From NCBI GenBank assembly GCA_008080745.1, contig SHMX01000003.1:30001-62000 (forward strand): a DNA stretch of 32,000 bases, given 5' to 3'. Positions within the stretch are counted from its first letter, which is position 1; every line of letters starts with the position of its first letter. The position numbers and the translations under genes were made by a program. Origin of the DNA: Candidatus Thorarchaeota archaeon (GTDB taxonomy: Archaea; Asgardarchaeota; Thorarchaeia; Thorarchaeales; Thorarchaeaceae). Below the pieces are notes generated by a model, which was given only the letters and a program-made list of their open reading frames with translations, made no database searches and was not told the origin of the DNA. Shown here one piece after another: positions 13,905-21,430 of the stretch.

Positions 13905-16505
13905 GTGAAAAAGCACACCCCTATGCAAAGACAATATTTGGAACTTAAGAAACAGTACAAAGACTGTATTCTTCTATTCAGACTAGGTGATTTCTATGAG
14001 ATGTTCAATGAAGATGCGAAGAAAGCTAGTGAAACGCTTGAAATCGTTCTTACCGCCAGGGGTGAAGGTATAGACAAATGGCCTATGTGTGGAGTTCCAT
14101 ATCATTCAATTGAAGGGTATATTGCAAAATTACTGGAAGCAGGATACACAGTTGCGATTGCAGAACAAGTTGAAGATGCCTCCAAAGCAAAGGGCCTAGT
14201 TAAACGAGAGGTTGTTCGAGTAATAACACCCGGTACCATTCTGGAGAGCTCAATGCTTGAAGATAGCTCTAATAATTATCTGGTTGCCGTGATAGAACAC
14301 GACCAACAAGTGGGTATTGCATCAGTGGATGTTTCAACGGGTGAATTTGTTACTACACAATTTCCGGGAACCCTACTGGGTGAGAAAACAATCAATGAAT
14401 TAGGAAGACTTGGTCCTGCTGAGTTGCTTCTCCCAGAATCAGCTATGGGGTCTCAAAGTGTTATGCAAGCTTTTGAACCACTGGAAACAAAGATAACCTT
14501 CCGAAGTGATCTGGATTTCTCAGCACGTCAATCTGAACAGCGATTGAAAGAACAGTTCAATGTGACAACACTGGATGGGTTTGGGCTAATAGAAAAAGAG
14601 GTAGCTATTGGAGCGGCTGGTGCGGTTCTAGCTTATTTGCATGACGTGTACAAAGAGAACGTAATCACTCTCACTGGTGTTAGGACATATTCTGTTGAAA
14701 GACACATGATTGTTGACAGGACTACTCAACGAAATTTAGAGCTTCTAAAGAACGCACGAGATGGATCGAAAAGAGGAACACTTCTGAGTGTTCTATCTAA
14801 GACTGTCACGCCTATGGGACGTAGGTTGCTAAAAAAATGGATACTTCAACCATTGATGGATATTGACGAAATAAATGAAAGACTGGATGCAGTGGAAGAG
14901 TTTGCAAGAAGTGCAATCGACCGACAAGAAACCATGAATAGTCTATCAAATCTTGGAGACCTTGAGAGAATAACAAGCAGAGTTGTTTTTGGGACTGGAG
15001 GAGCTCGAGACCTAGTCGCTCTTCGAAATGCTCTATCAAGAATCCCTAAAATTAAGAAAAAACTGAATTCATGCAAAGCAGATTTAGTCTACAAGTTATG
15101 CTCAGATATTGACCCATTAGAATTTTTACATGAAACATTGGAAAAAGCACTGATTGATGATCCACCTGTAAGTATCCGAGAAGGAGGGATGATTAAGGAA
15201 GGATTCAGTGAGGATTTGGACAAGCTGAAGCAGGGCATATCGGATGATAAAAAGTGGATTGCTTCATTGCAGGTTAGAGAACGAAGAAGAACTGGAATCA
15301 AATCACTCAAAGTTGGTTTCAACAAGGTCTTTGGATATTATATTGAAGTCACAAAAGCAAACATAGACAACGTTCCTGAGGAATATGAAAGAAAACAAAC
15401 CTTAACCAATGCAGAAAGATATATCATTCCCGAGCTCAAGGAAAAAGAAGCAAGTGTTCTGGCGGGAGAAGAAAAAATCAACCAACTTGAATATCGAATC
15501 TATGAAGACCTAAGAGCATTAGTAAAGGAGAGGGTTGACGCTCTGAGAAAAAATGCAGATGCCATTGCAAAGATTGATGTTTTGGCATCACTTGCAGAAG
15601 TGGCTGTTCTTAGGAAATATCACAGGCCAGAATTAACAAAAGGAAAAAGAATCAAAATTATTGATGGGCGACATCCTTCATTGGAGATGATGCTAGGGCC
15701 AAATGAGTTTGTACCAAATAGTCTTGAGATCGGCGATGGGGGAGCTACTTTACTCATCGTTACAGGGCCAAATATGGCTGGAAAATCAACCTATATGAGA
15801 CAGACTGCAATAATTGCACTACTAGCACAGATGGGAAGCTTTACTCCAGCAAAGGAAGCAGAAATCGGATTGGTTGATAGAATATTTACTAGAGTAGGTG
15901 CTTTTGATGATCTTACCGCTCGACAGAGTACATTCATGGTGGAAATGGTAGAAACAGCAAACATTCTGAACAATGCCACTGAAAGAAGTCTTGTCATTCT
16001 GGACGAGATAGGTCGAGGTACATCGACTTTCGATGGAATGGCACTCGCTTGGGCAGTAGCGGAACAGATAGTCCAAATAAAATGTCGAACCCTCTTTGCC
16101 ACACATTTTCATCAATTGACTGATATGGCATCATCCTATCATGGTGTGAAGAATGTACACACTTTAGCACGTGAAACGGGAAACACCATTGTGTTTCTTC
16201 ATAAGGTTGTGGAGGGAGGTACAGATAGAAGTTACGGAGTTCATGTCGCTTCATTAGCAGGTGTGCCAAACTCTGTTGTTCGACGTGCTCAACAACTTCT
16301 TATAAAATTAGAAAAAGAGAGTACCTTGGAACTTGGTAAAGGTATGGAGGATGCAGAAGAGGCAATTCAAACCAGTCTTGAGGCTCTAACAATTGATGAC
16401 CCAATTGTCGAACGAATTAAACACCTAGATCTTGACCGTATGACACCAGTTGATGCCTTGCTCAAACTTAAAGAAATGCAAGAAGAAGCTAAAAAACGAA
16501 GCTAG
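13905..16505 (+). CDS. mutS: DNA mismatch repair protein MutS (MutS1 type)
   Basis: HTPMQRQY, FRLGDFYEMF (Phe-X-Glu mismatch motif), Walker A GPNMAGKST, Walker B DEIGRGTST, HTH SYGVHVA. Confidence 0.97.
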   Translation: MKKHTPMQRQYLELKKQYKDCILLFRLGDFYEMFNEDAKKASETLEIVLTARGEGIDKWPMCGVPYHSIEGYIAKLLEAGYTVAIAEQVEDASKAKGLVKREVVRVITPGTILESSMLEDSSNNYLVAVIEHDQQVGIASVDVSTGEFVTTQFPGTLLGEKTINELGRLGPAELLLPESAMGSQSVMQAFEPLETKITFRSDLDFSARQSEQRLKEQFNVTTLDGFGLIEKEVAIGAAGAVLAYLHDVYKENVITLTGVRTYSVERHMIVDRTTQRNLELLKNARDGSKRGTLLSVLSKTVTPMGRRLLKKWILQPLMDIDEINERLDAVEEFARSAIDRQETMNSLSNLGDLERITSRVVFGTGGARDLVALRNALSRIPKIKKKLNSCKADLVYKLCSDIDPLEFLHETLEKALIDDPPVSIREGGMIKEGFSEDLDKLKQGISDDKKWIASLQVRERRRTGIKSLKVGFNKVFGYYIEVTKANIDNVPEEYERKQTLTNAERYIIPELKEKEASVLAGEEKINQLEYRIYEDLRALVKERVDALRKNADAIAKIDVLASLAEVAVLRKYHRPELTKGKRIKIIDGRHPSLEMMLGPNEFVPNSLEIGDGGATLLIVTGPNMAGKSTYMRQTAIIALLAQMGSFTPAKEAEIGLVDRIFTRVGAFDDLTARQSTFMVEMVETANILNNATERSLVILDEIGRGTSTFDGMALAWAVAEQIVQIKCRTLFATHFHQLTDMASSYHGVKNVHTLARETGNTIVFLHKVVEGGTDRSYGVHVASLAGVPNSVVRRAQQLLIKLEKESTLELGKGMEDAEEAIQTSLEALTIDDPIVERIKHLDLDRMTPVDALLKLKEMQEEAKKRS

Positions 16506-16514
16506 AAATTATAT

Positions 16515-17327
16515 GTGTTATATCCAATAAAATCTCAAATGATGGTCCATGAGAGGGAACAAGATAGACGACTCAAAACTATAACTGCTACATGTTGCCT
16601 AGGCTTCATAGTCATAGTTCTAATTGGGGTATTCTTCATTGATACGGATGATTATTTTCAGGGATATCTTATGTTGATTTGTCTGTTTGGGTTTCTTGGA
16701 ATTATTGGTCATCGCTGCTATAGGTCCTTAGTGATACCTCAACTTGATAAAGACAAGCTTGAGAAAGCGGGACCATACCTTCAAGGGAAAACTGTATGGT
16801 CTAGTGAAGTCATTCATGCACCACTCACTCGTTCAGATATCAAATATATTCTAAAACTATCCAAGAATGAAGACAAATATGGAATTTTAAAAAAAGGGGA
16901 AAAAATTGAGGTAATTCTTGAAATAGACACTGAAACAATAAATCTGTTTTCTGACAAGCGAAATCTGGATGCCTATTTGTATTATAGAATTGAGGAGCAT
17001 GAACGATTATGGCGGTTAATCAAGAGAACAGTAGTAATTGGGATAGTATGGTTTGGGGTCCTATATATTATTTTGACTCCACTCTTTCAGCATCCTATTC
17101 TCTCAATCCTTAATTTCTATGGCACTCTAAAAGTTCTTGTCGCTATATGGACATTTTTGCCTATAGCATATCTTATGTGGAGATACCACTTTGCTTCATT
17201 TGACTTTAGTATCTATCTAAATTATACAGAATTTATTGATGTGTTAGAAAGCTTGAAAGTTAGTGCTAAGACAAAATATGAGAAGAAAAAATTACAGAGT
17301 AGAATCAATAATCTTAGAGAAAAATAA
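16515..17327 (+). CDS. Hypothetical membrane protein (2+2 TM around a soluble loop)
   Basis: 270-aa ORF 9 nt after mutS with four hydrophobic helices; no family recognised. Confidence 0.65.
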   Translation: MLYPIKSQMMVHEREQDRRLKTITATCCLGFIVIVLIGVFFIDTDDYFQGYLMLICLFGFLGIIGHRCYRSLVIPQLDKDKLEKAGPYLQGKTVWSSEVIHAPLTRSDIKYILKLSKNEDKYGILKKGEKIEVILEIDTETINLFSDKRNLDAYLYYRIEEHERLWRLIKRTVVIGIVWFGVLYIILTPLFQHPILSILNFYGTLKVLVAIWTFLPIAYLMWRYHFASFDFSIYLNYTEFIDVLESLKVSAKTKYEKKKLQSRINNLREK

Positions 17328-17339
17328 CAGAACCCGACC

Positions 17340-17345
17340 TTTTTT
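17340..17345 (+). terminator. Possible archaeal oligo-T terminator
   Basis: T6 tract 12 nt after the stop at 17327. Confidence 0.3.
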
Positions 17346-17435
17346 GCCTAAGTAAGCCCCTAATATCTTTCTAATCTAGAACTCGTAATAATAACCGGAT
17401 GCTTGAGAACCACGACTATATCGGCTTATTTGAAA

Positions 17436-17590
17436 CCGTTGCACAGAACTTGGACAAAGGTGGACAGGTGTCCTCATCTGCTGTCTGTTTCCTGCTTCAT
17501 CGAGGCTGCATCACTGGTCACAGAGGACTGGTGTTGTCTTACTTCCTCTTCACAGGCGTTTTGGGCCTCCGTGCAACTCACGGCGGCATA
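17436..17590 (-). ncRNA. Putative TnpB omegaRNA (reRNA) scaffold; the guide would be the 3' flank starting at 17435
   Basis: Overlaps the TnpB-tail relic and ends at the right end (...GCAACGG). Visible pairings: CCGTG/CACGG hairpin (17569-17583), CCTGT/GCAGG, GAGG/CCTC, GACAG/CTGTC. The 5' boundary is approximate and expression is unknown. Confidence 0.6.
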
Positions 17591-17738
17591 CTTATCTTAG
17601 ACATGATTCCTAATAACCTCCACTTCTGATGGTCTAGGTATACACTCCTGGTGGCCGAGCTGCCGGTGCTACCGTATACAGGTCAATATATCAAAGAGTC
17701 AATCGATATATGTCCAAGCTTGTCCACGTTTTGATCAG
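17439..17738. repeat. Sub-terminal inverted motif triplets of the IS607-derived element
   Basis: Plus strand TTGCACA (17439), TTGGACA (17450), GTGGACA (17460) versus TGTCCAA (17711), TGTCCAC (17721), TGATCAG (17732); mirror-image 11- and 10-bp spacing. Confidence 0.7.
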
Positions 17739-18400
17739 CTATTGCATACCCTACAATTATAATCTCTACTATCGAACCTATTATAATGATAATCGAAATA
17801 TTATCAAATGATAGGCCAGGTGGTACAGTTGTATTGGTCGATGTAGTCCCATCAAGGACCGTGTCCATAACTTGGTCCGACACTGTACTACCAGATTGGT
17901 CGGATACCTCTATGGTAAAATTCCAAATGCCGCTTGAGAAATCGTATAAGAGAAGAGTAACAGCAGTCTGATTGGAATCAGCTACCCGCTATATTTCATC
18001 GTAAAAGAATAGGACATCATTTTCATAAATCGCGCAGCTAGTTGGAGTATTCTCAGTGATAATCCAAGTGATATAAACATCATTAACACCAGTTGTGAAT
18101 TTAATATCGAACGGATTGGATATCTCAAGAGGTTTTTTGTCAAGTGGATACTCTTCTCTATTACCCCATCGGTCATGAGCTGGTTTACCATCAGGGATCC
18201 AGTTTCTAGAAATAGGTGAACTGAAGAAATCAGAAGGTCATGCAGAAAAGCATCTCTACATAAAAAGTAAACGATTTGCCCTCCTTATAATTAGTGTCTG
18301 ACAGTAATGGAAATATCAATAATTTTCTGCAATATTATGTCAAAGGAGATTGCAAAAAAGAGAATCTCCTGACATTTTATAGGCTTATACTAGCATTCTT

Positions 18401-21400
18401 CTATCCATAATAGTATCCAGAACTACCAGTATTACCTCTAGCTCTGCAGATTTGTGCTATCACTATTATAATCACAACAAATGAGCCAATAGTAATAATG
18501 ATAGATATTGTATCAAAAGGGTTCCCTGGATTGGTAGTAGTTGTTGTTGTGTCGTTAGTAGTAGTTGAGGTCGTGTCAGCGATAACATAAACCATTACAG
18601 TATCAGATATTGCATTTCCTCCTTCATCTACAACAACAATGGTGTAGTTATACACCCCTATGTCCAGACCATTCAGAGAAATTGCAATTCCTATTTGATC
18701 TTGGTTATCTGGCTCTCCAAATTCACTTGATACTAGTACTGTGTCGTCCAGATAGACGACATAAGATGCGGGATTTGCTTCCGTTACGGTCCATGTGATA
18801 GATTCACCCAAGGTCCCAACTATAAATTCTATATCGGAAGGTTGGGATATTTCAGGGTTGATGGTATCCACAATGGTAACAATAGTACTAGAATTACCTG
18901 TATTTCCGCTAGTATCACGAAAGATCAGAGTATAATTATAGACCCCCAATGATAAATCATCCATTGGTAGCGTAATATCGTTTCCTGACCAAGATATCAA
19001 CTCTGAAATTGTACCATTGATATATATCGAATAACTATCAGGATACAAATCCGATGCTTGCCAGGTTAATTCATTACCAGAAGATCCCAACTCAATACTC
19101 ATCGAACTAATGCTTGTAACCTCAGGTCCAGTGGTGTCGAGAACATGAACCTCAATGCTATGACTTGTGAACCTTGAGAAGGAATCATACACAACTATCT
19201 GGTACTCATACGAACCCAGTTGAAGACCGTCCACAGAGAATACTAATTCAGAACCATCCCAAGATCCACTTGTTTCCAAGTTATCATTAATGAATAGTTC
19301 ATAATTACTTGGATTATCTTCAAGAAAAGTCCAAGAAATCACATTTCCGATTGTACCTGCTTCTATAGTATCGTTTTCAAATGATACAAGTACGGGAGGA
19401 TTCATGTCAAAATTGGTAGATTCCAATTCGCCCCATTCATTATGTAGCGGTTCGCCATTAGGGTTCCAGTTTCTTATGTAGAGATGGTCTATATACCATA
19501 TCTCACCTGAGATCGAACCTTCGGTCAGACAAGGTTGTAGATCGATATCGGGAACCAGAGTGGATGTACTATGTACCTGACTATTATCTTGATACCATGT
19601 TGCAGTATCGTTCTTACGAAAGAGGGTATACGAGTGTTGATCAGTGATGGATGATGGAAAATAGGCGTATTCACCATCGAAAGATCCAGAAACTCCGGTT
19701 TCGAAATAGAAGTAGTTTGCAGAATTAGAACCATAGGAATCGATCTTTGATACGTTTTCGGGGTAGCCAGTTCTCAATTCTACAAGATGAGTGTTTTGAG
19801 TGGACAGACCGTTGGCATAACCGCGAACTGTATATGCTGTATTATAGGAGATATTTACTTTACCATCTATACTTCCTCGTGTTCCATCTGTGGATATCAA
19901 TTCTAGGTAGCCATTTGAAGTACTGATGTCCCCACTGGTCATATTCCATTTGTTCAGGTCAAGGTCCGCATTGAAATCGTCAAAGAACAGGAAGGTGGCT
20001 TCGCCATCACTGATACTCTCAGCTGTGGGATTCCCATAGTAGAGATAGATGCTCTGGTCAACATCCAGCGTATCATTCATCTCCACCCAGACCGTAGCGT
20101 AATCACCTGAAGTGGATTCCTCAATCCAGTAATCAAGAAGCGTTATTCCATCATCATCTGTGAATCGGATATCAGCAAAGTCACTCTTGCAGAGTTCGTC
20201 AAGATAGACAGTTGACCCAGAATCCGTACCCGATCCATACTGTAGGTCGAATGCAATCTGATAGTTGGTTCCAGAGCCAACCGCTCCACTGATGTTGTGG
20301 GCCTTTCTGTACTGCCAACTGGTCAACCATGGGCTCTCCACTTCACCACTAGAGCTCACAGCAGGTTCATTATAGATATACTTTCGAACGTAGAAGTCGT
20401 CCAGCATGAACTCGTCACCCAGTCCATTTTTCCCCCAGCCATAGACCCGGAAGCAGCTGAACCCACTTATTGGGTCCTCTCGTCGGTTCTCTCCTGGATA
20501 GGTGGTCCCGTCAAGGGTGAGATTGGTCTTTCCAGCTGAACTGGCCTTGTACTCGAGATCATACCAGGTATCTGGAAGGGCACTGATTCCATCCTGAAAG
20601 TCATGCAATACCCCAGCAGTGTCACGATATGCAAAGTCGTACTGTATTTCCGTAAAAGCGGACACTGAGAAGGCAGGGTCCCAGGTATGTCTGTCTACGA
20701 TACTACTGATGAACTGATAGGCCCGGATCTCCCAGTAGAACTTGAAATGTACCGCAATGTTGGTATGTTCTTCAAAGTAGGTCCCGATAACCTGGGAACC
20801 CGTTCCAGTGGGATCTTCTTGAAGATGACCAACCATACCAGAACGACCACCAGGAGCTGCTGCAAGCTCCCAGGTGTCACCAGCCTCTGTTTCGTTTACC
20901 TCCCACTTGGACAGGTCGGCCTCAAAGTCGTCAAAGGCGATGAAGGTGGCTGTACCATTGCTGATAGACTCAGCAGCTGTGTTGCCATAGTAGAGATAGA
21001 TGGTCTGGTCAACATCAAGGTTATCAGCTATCTCTACCCAGACTATTGCGTTGTTTCCAATAGTCATCTCCTCCATCCAGTAGTTCAAGAGGGTGACTCC
21101 ATCATCGTCTGTAAAGCGGATGTCGCTAAAATCACTATTGCATTGACTATCGAGATAGATATCCCAGCAGATATCAGATCCGCTTCCAAAATGGATCGTG
21201 AATCGAACTTGATAATTATTACCTGCTCCCATACTACCTTTAATGGTTACAGATTTACGACATTGCCAATCATATAACCAATTAGATTCTGCAGAGAGAG
21301 ATGAATCTTTCTGCATATATCTCGATACGGAATCAAAGTCTTCAGAAATTTCAATCTGCGGCGTATAGAAAGCACTTAAGACAAAAAGCACAATCACTAT

Positions 21401-21430
21401 CACTATGGGTATTATTTTCTTTGCCCTCAT
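18401..21430 (-). CDS. Membrane-anchored surface protein: signal/TM - two DUF2341-like (plus LamG-like) modules - three Ig-like repeats - Thr-rich linker - TM anchor
   Basis: N-terminal hydrophobic leader; repeated W..RK...I.G..G.G.NYQ...DF.DIRFTDDDG.TLL.YW.E...A.VWVE...L....IYLYYGN..A; three D..[GN]P....ITW...[ND]P..Y Ig-like units; TTTTTT then a TM helix. Confidence 0.9.
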   Translation of the reverse strand: MRAKKIIPIVIVIVLFVLSAFYTPQIEISEDFDSVSRYMQKDSSLSAESNWLYDWQCRKSVTIKGSMGAGNNYQVRFTIHFGSGSDICWDIYLDSQCNSDFSDIRFTDDDGVTLLNYWMEEMTIGNNAIVWVEIADNLDVDQTIYLYYGNTAAESISNGTATFIAFDDFEADLSKWEVNETEAGDTWELAAAPGGRSGMVGHLQEDPTGTGSQVIGTYFEEHTNIAVHFKFYWEIRAYQFISSIVDRHTWDPAFSVSAFTEIQYDFAYRDTAGVLHDFQDGISALPDTWYDLEYKASSAGKTNLTLDGTTYPGENRREDPISGFSCFRVYGWGKNGLGDEFMLDDFYVRKYIYNEPAVSSSGEVESPWLTSWQYRKAHNISGAVGSGTNYQIAFDLQYGSGTDSGSTVYLDELCKSDFADIRFTDDDGITLLDYWIEESTSGDYATVWVEMNDTLDVDQSIYLYYGNPTAESISDGEATFLFFDDFNADLDLNKWNMTSGDISTSNGYLELISTDGTRGSIDGKVNISYNTAYTVRGYANGLSTQNTHLVELRTGYPENVSKIDSYGSNSANYFYFETGVSGSFDGEYAYFPSSITDQHSYTLFRKNDTATWYQDNSQVHSTSTLVPDIDLQPCLTEGSISGEIWYIDHLYIRNWNPNGEPLHNEWGELESTNFDMNPPVLVSFENDTIEAGTIGNVISWTFLEDNPSNYELFINDNLETSGSWDGSELVFSVDGLQLGSYEYQIVVYDSFSRFTSHSIEVHVLDTTGPEVTSISSMSIELGSSGNELTWQASDLYPDSYSIYINGTISELISWSGNDITLPMDDLSLGVYNYTLIFRDTSGNTGNSSTIVTIVDTINPEISQPSDIEFIVGTLGESITWTVTEANPASYVVYLDDTVLVSSEFGEPDNQDQIGIAISLNGLDIGVYNYTIVVVDEGGNAISDTVMVYVIADTTSTTTNDTTTTTTNPGNPFDTISIIITIGSFVVIIIVIAQICRARGNTGSSGYYYG
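19991..21050. repeat. Intragenic duplication of the DUF2341-like module (offset 951 bp = 317 codons)
   Basis: 19991-20099 aligns ungapped with 20942-21050, including ccatagtagagatagatg[c/g]tctggtcaacatc (31 of 32 nt identical). Confidence 0.85.

Follow-up and report, generated by a model that had tools for sequence, protein, structure and literature searches.

The question raised by this locus is what kind of DNA interrupts the tail-coding end of a surface-protein reading frame in an Asgard archaeon, and whether the inserted DNA still takes part in a mobile system. The locus lies in a 32,000-nucleotide stretch (the window) of a Candidatus Thorarchaeota archaeon genome (assembly GCA_008080745.1, contig SHMX01000003.1, positions 30,001 to 62,000 of the forward strand). 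The assembly (G000 below) comprises 19 contigs, labelled C1 onwards, with 3.16 Mb and 98% completeness. A preliminary description, made from the sequence alone, had placed a hidden 313-bp miniature element of the IS607 family at window positions 17436-17748. Our analysis indicates that this segment is very probably a non-autonomous miniature derivative of an IS607-type insertion sequence (IS) that contains no open reading frame (ORF), has kept both transposon ends and the scaffold of the TnpB guide RNA, and in which tnpA at about codon 27 has been joined to tnpB at about codon 365. All window features described below are on the minus strand unless stated otherwise.

We searched G000 by blastn with the element and 100-bp flanks, and aligned the copies with 45-bp flanks by MAFFT. 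The genome contains 11 full-length copies of 310-316 bp and one further copy cut by a contig end, together with three pieces consisting of the right end only, a 147-bp derivative and a few left-end pieces. Pairwise identity among the full copies ranges from 83 to 100% with a mean of 91.5% (n = 11). The limits of similarity between copies agree to within 0-3 bp with the boundaries first proposed, and the sequence reads as it had been quoted, so that the description of a 313-bp element with sharp ends holds. The G+C content of these 313 bp is ~0.5, as against 0.3-0.4 in the flanks. Two copies, C2:279776-280088 and C10:10388-10700, are 100% identical over 313 bp and occupy unrelated sites, which points to recent transposition, gene conversion being less likely.

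The junctions are uniform across the family. GGG stands immediately 5' of TATGCAAC in 11/11 full copies (of GATGCAAC in one of them) and the 3' terminus is CAACGG, so that the element can be written GGG/TATGCAAC...GTGCAACGG/, where the slashes mark the junctions. At the window locus the minus strand reads ...ATT GTA GGG / TATGCAAT...GTGCAACGG / TTT CAA ATA AGC.... The flanks of the 11 full copies are unrelated in the alignment, the shared GG being the sole target duplication, and because GG is present at both junctions the element may be delimited equally well as 17436-17748 or as 17438-17750. The five bases preceding the 11 copies are TAGGG, GGGGG, GAGGG, TGGGG, ATGGG, AGGGG, TAGGG, GAGGG, TAGGG, AAGGG and AAGGG. 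The GGG of the left junction (17749-17751), which consists of the GG crossover dinucleotide and one upstream G, is thus the target motif and, by comparison with published examples, presumably the target-adjacent motif (TAM) of TnpB, of the form RGGG.

Within the element, the left end begins with a terminal core, TATGCAAYAGCTGATC (17733-17748), that is kept in all copies, in a longer element carrying only tnpB and in a miniature element from another genus, and the right end terminates in GTTCTGTGCAACGG (17436-17449), whose last two bases are the GG crossover dinucleotide. Inside these termini lie presumed binding sites for the serine recombinase TnpA(Ser). On the left they read GTGGACA-agc-TTGGACA (17711-17727; element positions 22-28 and 32-38), and on the right GAGGACA, TGTCCAC and TGTCCAA follow one another with a 9-10-bp period (17450-17475; element positions 274-280, 283-289 and 293-299), where the alignment and the RNA structure indicate that they also form the 3' hairpin of the guide RNA. 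The KTGGACA pairs have a 10-bp spacing, lie no more than 40 bp from each end and are inverted between the ends, an arrangement from which TnpA binding is predicted; the same heptamers mark the ends of tnpA-bearing IS607 relics on contigs C1 and C16. Mirror-spaced heptamer triplets had been reported here: two clear, inverted KTGGACA motifs stand at each end, whereas the third is degenerate or oppositely oriented at each. Terminal inverted repeats are absent, since the ends share a direct TGCAAC and inverted symmetry is confined to the subterminal heptamers. In the broad sense the element is a miniature IS, being short, multicopy, devoid of an intact ORF and equipped with the ends of a longer parent; in having neither terminal inverted repeats nor a target duplication beyond GG, it falls outside the strict definition of a miniature inverted-repeat transposable element (MITE).

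That the insert is a discrete unit is further indicated by the host reading frame, whose restoration on removal of the insert had been the original ground for recognizing it. The relevant paralogue is a 1009-residue protein with two DUF2341 domains (18401-21430). When the insert is removed, paralogue residues 860-1008 align through the junction (tblastn, E 7e-32), including the C-terminal tail ...IIIV-QI-R--RG---SGYYY, whereas with the insert present the alignment ends at residue 990. The host part upstream of the element (17749-18206) is a tandem, partial copy of the paralogue's final third, and the last 19 codons plus stop of the interrupted frame (17376-17435) encode a cytoplasmic tail ending SGYYYEF. 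A stop precedes the open host frame, in which no start codon is evident, and an in-frame TAG lies at 17989-17991, where the contigs of two metagenome runs show no other letter; given the lack of a start and the TAG, we regard the host as a pseudogene. The element therefore sits in a pseudogene whichever event came first: this copy was inserted where a partial DUF2341 surface-protein paralogue encodes its tail, and the paralogue was dead by then or died later. When the other copies are removed, the site mostly falls between genes or in the final few codons of an ORF.

The empty allele predicted by this reconstruction was not recovered. A 24-mer spanning the restored junction has no exact match in public genome or metagenome contig collections, a DNA search of 30 relatives did not find the orthologous flank, and a protein search of five relatives returned only remote paralogues with 36-43% identity and different short tails. 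Two marine-sediment DNA runs from a single study contain the locus; their contigs break inside the repeat and provide no joint across the element. Among the sequencing runs listed as containing the stretch, none is recorded as RNA. Since no empty allele was found, it is the comparison with the paralogue, by itself, that supports the empty site. In the same two runs the summed depth of contigs at the element ends is ~30-38 times that of the flanks.

The left 160 bp of the element are an IS607 left end followed by the decayed start of a tnpA encoding a MerR-type helix-turn-helix (HTH) and a serine recombinase. Element positions 17-121 are 73% identical to C1:303186-303290, which comprises the left end and first codons of a tnpA whose ORF reads MFTVSQAARRLGVCTKTIRRWD... 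and matches the MerR and Resolvase domains of Pfam; the counterpart in the miniature element has decayed to LYTVAPAARPPGVYT*TIR. The decayed HTH start noted earlier is thereby identified, and corresponds to the first ~26 tnpA codons with an in-frame TAG (17604-17681). The second left heptamer is followed directly by ACATATATC (17705-17713), located ~27 nt upstream of where tnpA used to start. It resembles an archaeal TATA box and shows conservation both among the copies and in the C1 parent; from this sequence and alignment we propose it as the former tnpA promoter.

The right 153 bp (element positions 161-313) show 88% identity to a sequence made up of the tnpB 3' end and the DNA from there to GTTCTGTGCAACGG. 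The TnpB-like tail seen previously proves to be the last 37 tnpB codons including the stop (17474-17587), which correspond to the C-terminus of the genome's single TnpB of this type (tblastn, 72% identity, residues 363-402). This sole typical tnpB is intact (C2:235731-236936). Its product matches the OrfB_IS605, Cas12f1-like TNB and HTH_OrfB domains (Pfam), aligns end to end with ISDra2 TnpB, and keeps the RuvC Asp, Glu and Asp residues and the CxxC...CxxC zinc ribbon. The gene forms part of a 1393-bp element with tnpB only (C2:235585-236977), whose left end reads GGG/TATGCAACAGCTG followed by TTGGACA-aag-TTGGACA and which has its left-end core, heptamers and right end in common with the miniature element; the C1 tnpA remnant shares the left end. 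Both loci are parents that share ends with the element; an intact tnpA is absent from the G000 assembly. Outside the archaeal family, the nearest TnpB relatives found are bacterial (Moorella, 59%; Peptococcaceae, 54%), which hints at transfer between bacteria and these archaea.

Together, these matches support the proposed internal deletion, with tnpA truncated at about codon 27 and fused to tnpB at about codon 365. What has been retained is the left end with its two heptamers and tnpA promoter region, a decaying tnpA stub, and a ~153-nt scaffold that overlaps the right end. The three segments are unequally conserved among the copies, with a mean pairwise identity of 94.8% for the left end, 86.2% for the tnpA stub, the least conserved segment, and 92.8% for the RNA and right end. 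Such a pattern is to be expected should the ends and the RNA be important for those lineages that continue to spread.

The right half had been undersold as a mere protein-coding remnant, because it is a complete and structurally conserved scaffold of a TnpB guide RNA (reRNA or omega RNA), extending from 17588 to the right end at 17436. For the structure we aligned the terminal ~165 nt of the copy linked to tnpB, of four miniature copies and of two fragments with the right end only, together with seven homologues taken from G004 and G008, which represent other genera of the same family. RNAalifold finds in this alignment 40 pairs in eight helices, 15 of which pairs show compensatory double changes. 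Of the alignment cells at paired positions, 96.5% are paired, compared with 28-42% once the 3' partners have been displaced by 1-3 columns; the 15 doubly changed pairs compare with 0-8 under the same displacement, and 0/500 column shuffles reach the observed values. The double changes mostly separate two clades and so represent few events, yet they are spread over seven of the eight helices. Some of the changes between copies preserve pairing, as where A-U gives way to U-G in the 3' hairpin. Folding of the single sequence is uninformative, with z scores of -0.6 and -0.2 for the two strands.

The structure starts at the first base kept from tnpB and stops 7 nt before the right end, with the right-end heptamers forming its 3' hairpin. 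The deletion has therefore spared the entire scaffold and no more. At loci L001, L007, L018, L105 and L108 the same RNA directly follows tnpB. A covariance model built from this RNA (R1) scores 184 bits at the window copy. Against Rfam, the core of the scaffold (17489-17556) resembles RAGATH-18 (RF03064), with 25.3 bits (E 0.021) as against a gathering score of 44.9, which it does not reach. This is the one Rfam match in 17300-17900 at a permissive threshold, and it covers the full model. All 13 listed RAGATH-18 matches in G000 at E<=1 belong to this repeat family, in which scores range from 20 to 28 bits, and homologues in two other genera score 25-27 bits. A signal recognition particle RNA, guessed at from size and GC content, was rejected, as there is no such Rfam match at the gathering score or at E<=10; a group I intron or IStron, as read in another copy, was likewise rejected, since neither three G000 copies nor relatives gave a match to an Rfam intron at E<=1.

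Several scaffolds in the genome occur outside the standard miniature element. The 147-bp derivative (L112, C5:43640-43786) consists of 26 nt of the left end and the last 128 nt, and is without the left heptamers and the first RNA stem. Two scaffolds (L002, C2:539333-539496; L003, C1:555778-555942) possess a right end only, with neither left end nor tnpB, and their termini are mutated to CAATGG and CAACAG.

The recombinase genes of the genome are less complete than its tnpB. A genome-wide six-frame search gave two Resolvase matches, on C1 and C16, in ORFs of the parental type that match MerR as well as Resolvase. The same type of search found no Y1 transposase (Y1_Tnp, PF01797) in this 98% complete assembly. 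The C1 and C16 loci (L005, C1:301365-303300; L004, C16:9200-9938) are IS607 relics in which a cut-off MerR/Resolvase tnpA is followed by a very long TnpB-like ORF; a GVDRGL RuvC-I-like motif is preceded in it by more than 490 residues, and its N-terminal part has no Pfam match. There is also a second family of miniature elements, ~190 bp long and present in at least 15 copies (for example C2:112277-112470, C4:131446-131638, C5:95742-95937 and C3:404265-404455), that has TGGACA heptamer pairs at both ends as in the 313-bp family; at C4 ~186182-186369 and ~200863-201050 it is combined with the TATGCAACAGCTG left-end core of the latter. A single transposase type probably serves the 313-bp family, the C1 and C16 relics and the ~190-bp family. 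The heptamer motif occurs at many contig ends (C1:37-53, C1:668828-668844, C10:4-20, C11:58-74, C11:54676-54692, C12:37-53 and C5:559-575). Elements of this transposon community are evidently where the assembly breaks, and such places could conceal an intact tnpA. Given the heptamers at contig ends and the 30-38-fold depth, unassembled copies or other carriers are likely.

Autonomous forms can be found in another genus of the same archaeal family. We sampled 41 genomes, of which 14, belonging to 7 of 16 genera, match R1, and 13 match TnpB residues 1-360; in a sister species (G001) neither scaffold nor tnpB was matched. In G035 and G008 a full tnpA(Ser) of 185-190 codons, covering Resolvase positions 2-142 of 145, overlaps by its stop the start of a tnpB encoding 401-409 residues, which is followed by the same RNA. 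The family thus includes autonomous IS607 elements of this lineage. Their tnpB genes belong to the same clade (59-62% identity), and the N-terminal HTH of their TnpA differs from the type present in the stub. In several genomes scaffolds outnumber tnpB genes: the respective counts are 16:1 in G000, 39:6 in G004, 21:1 in G031, 24:4 in G040, 9:0 in G046, 35:19 in G051, 7:7 in G045 and 9:8 in G035. The orphan scaffolds of G004, from a third genus, are those of a ~280-bp miniature element with the termini GGG/TATGCAACAGCTG...GGGCAACGG/, in which the whole scaffold is again kept. Because its interior is different and its breakpoint is ~20 nt further upstream, this element arose by an independent deletion.

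By analogy with studied IS607 and IS605 systems, the life cycle of the miniature element would run as follows. TnpA(Ser) supplied in trans would bind the heptamers and excise a double-stranded circle through the two GG dinucleotides, and the circle would be reinserted by crossover at the GG of an RGGG site without duplication. Transcription from the kept tnpA promoter, or read-through from the host, would produce a scaffold RNA with the 3' flank as guide; a transcript beginning from ACATATATC would run through the 80-nt stub and the scaffold into the flank. The single TnpB would then process and load this RNA in trans and cut the vacated site, GTAGGG followed by TTTCAAATAAGCCGAT..., where a TAM of the form RGGG adjoins the guide match, and recombination would restore the element. 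At the window locus the 20-nt guide predicted from the TnpB homing model is the 3' flank at 17416-17435, which matches only the empty site; the occupied site would be spared, since there the guide match is preceded by AACGG and not by RGGG, the TAM being read from left flanks only. In a scan of G000, the 16-nt 3' flanks of the copies had no second TAM-adjacent target, so the sole evident target of each RNA is its own vacated site. We tentatively extend this scheme to the suggestion, which we consider less likely than not, that the miniature elements are mobile and functioning guide-RNA genes, with one TnpB serving ~16 dispersed scaffolds, each of which is driven by a captured tnpA promoter and guards its own site. 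If this is true, selection for guide service would account for the retention of precisely the full scaffold in independent deletions in two genera, and the family would represent a natural IS607 state of one nuclease with many guides, intermediate on the way from transposon guide RNAs toward arrayed guides.

A number of observations weigh against our interpretation of the locus as an IS607-type miniature element with a retained guide scaffold. No intact tnpA(Ser) was found in the G000 assembly, where the C1 and C16 copies stop at Resolvase positions 77 and 51 of 145, respectively, and a mean identity of 91.5% shows that most copies are old. The RAGATH-18 scores of 20-28 bits do not reach the gathering threshold of RF03064. 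The cognate TnpB is nearer to ISDra2 TnpB, from an IS605 element (E 2e-74), than to the 384-residue chain 8iaz (E 9e-53), and pairings of TnpB with transposases have been found to be polyphyletic (PMC10691335). Finally, we infer promoter use, RNA production and loading of TnpB in trans by analogy. The most substantial alternative is that the repeat is derived from IS607 and is now a dead relic, immobile in this lineage, with an RNA part that has no present function and is conserved through recent common descent only. The truncation of every tnpA in the assembly favors such a history, as do the 5-17% divergence of most copies and the failure to find an empty or polymorphic site in the contigs of the two metagenome runs or in public collections. 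We nevertheless consider it unlikely, if by some way the strongest competitor, because two copies are identical over their whole length at different sites, the tnpA stub is less well conserved (86%) than the ends (95%) and the RNA part (93%), some changes between copies keep pairing, and the independent miniature element of another genus has also retained the whole scaffold. An intact cognate TnpB is moreover present, and an intact tnpA may lie in the unassembled repeats suggested by the heptamers at many contig ends. Mobilization in trans, which had been put forward at the outset, is thus plausible in view of the identical pair, even though the assembly offers only two truncated tnpA genes to perform it.

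The remaining alternatives concern what kind of element is involved. The similarity of the cognate TnpB to that of ISDra2 raises the matter of one of the palindrome-associated transposable elements (PATEs) of IS200/IS605 type, moved as single-stranded DNA by a Y1 tyrosine transposase and inserted 3' of a GGG-containing target, and the IS605 scheme, which makes the left flank target and TAM, yields on removal the same empty site. This reading is largely refuted and retains very little probability: the genome has no Y1_Tnp match, the left half is homologous to a serine-recombinase tnpA, GG is present at both junctions, and the ends carry direct 7-bp repeats with a 10-bp spacing in place of the subterminal hairpins of IS605. 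Autonomous relatives, furthermore, pair this clade of tnpB with a serine recombinase. Assignment to the IS607 family, as originally made, is upheld by the GG at both junctions, the RGGG target, the heptamers, the tnpA(Ser) homology of the left end and the lack of Y1. Scarcely more credible is a domesticated, stand-alone guide-RNA gene of the TldR-like kind that directs TnpB against the host surface-protein gene or regulates it. The guide position within host coding sequence and the great excess of scaffolds over tnpB would suit such a gene, whereas the guide of each copy is its own 3' flank with no second TAM-adjacent target in the genome, the occupied site is without RGGG, the TnpB nuclease residues are kept, the host is a pseudogene, and the copies have transposon ends and scattered sites.

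Some features of the surroundings may be recorded here. The 1009-residue surface protein (18401-21430) also has PKD-like repeats, a Thr-rich stalk and a C-terminal membrane anchor. It shares its unusual SGYYY tail with the decayed tandem copy (17376-18206), while the paralogues in five related genomes have a short basic tail in its place. On the plus strand, window positions 13905-16505 encode a bacterial-type MutS of 866 residues whose nearest protein clusters are all bacterial. The genome contains an actin (438 bits) and an ESCRT-II EAP30 domain, consistent with its Asgard assignment, and five short contigs (C14, C15, C17, C18 and C19) with 62-65% G+C, against ~41% in the rest, are probably contamination of the bin.

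The significance of the element lies less in its mechanism, the understanding of which it leaves unchanged, than in its distribution. It shows that IS607 elements, like those of the IS605 type, spawn gene-less derivatives that keep the guide-RNA scaffold of the nuclease, and that in one Asgard family orphan scaffolds exceed tnpB by up to ~20 to 1. Chief among the points of note are how far scaffolds exceed nuclease genes and that a second genus has a miniature element of independent origin. Derivatives of this kind are natural evidence for modular, trans-acting TnpA, TnpB and guide RNA, for which the published model comes mainly from bacterial IS605 systems. For annotation, one explanation now covers all copies of the repeat. 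Asgard TnpBs have been catalogued, mainly with Cas1-like transposases (PMC10691335). Full-text searches of a limited collection, which covered miniature elements of IS607 as well as IS607 and TnpB in Asgard archaea and in which absence proves nothing, brought up no account of a naturally occurring miniature element of IS607 descent that bears a guide scaffold.

The closest comparison is with the IS607 family itself (H. pylori IS607, the Clostridium botulinum CboIStron mini-IS and ISFba1). An IS607-family element has been shown to use a strict GG core with an upstream preference, TGGG, that is the TAM of TnpB, and its TnpA(Ser) sites are inverted motifs of 6-7 bp, with ~60 bp of each end being enough for transposition (10.1101/2023.11.20.567912). 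The present element is alike in its GG core at both junctions, in a G-rich target that presumably doubles as TAM, in the lack of any longer target duplication and in 6-7-bp motifs within about 60 bp of the ends; the order tnpA(Ser)-tnpB and a guide RNA overlapping the 3' end of tnpB and the right end are likewise held in common. It differs in that both genes are deleted, leaving 313 bp, in its Asgard host, in having no group I intron and in a cognate TnpB nearer to ISDra2 than to chain 8iaz. Laboratory-built IS607 mini-elements exist (10.1101/2023.11.20.567912), but these published mini-IS are engineered, whereas the 313-bp element is natural and multicopy. In vitro, IS607 TnpBs recognize the TAMs AGGAG or GAGGG, and their guide RNAs derive from the RAGATH-18 motif (Ren et al. 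2024, PMC11061315). The scaffold described here resembles a RAGATH-18 reRNA in its closing helices, its CCUGUG-AG ... CGAUGAAGCAGGAA motif, its position at the 3' end of tnpB and its presumed GAGGG-type TAM, and departs from it in score (20-28 bits against 44.9) and in an inner hairpin and extra 5' and 3' stems specific to this archaeal clade. With classical prokaryotic MITEs the element shares its shortness, multiple copies, non-coding nature, origin by internal deletion of an IS and location mostly at gene ends or between genes; unlike them it has no terminal inverted repeats and no target duplication, the inverted symmetry being limited to the subterminal heptamers. PATEs, which are gene-less IS200/IS605 derivatives that often still encode omega RNAs and need TnpB in trans (Meers et al., PMC10055086), are alike in lacking protein genes, in keeping their ends and the TnpB guide scaffold and in depending on TnpA and TnpB in trans; here, by contrast, the ends and parentage are those of a serine recombinase and not of Y1, terminal hairpins are absent, and the tnpA promoter and stub are kept. 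Gene-less derivatives bearing guide scaffolds are therefore known in the form of PATEs, and the element studied here is a well-bounded example of the IS607 type in an Asgard archaeon rather than a new kind.

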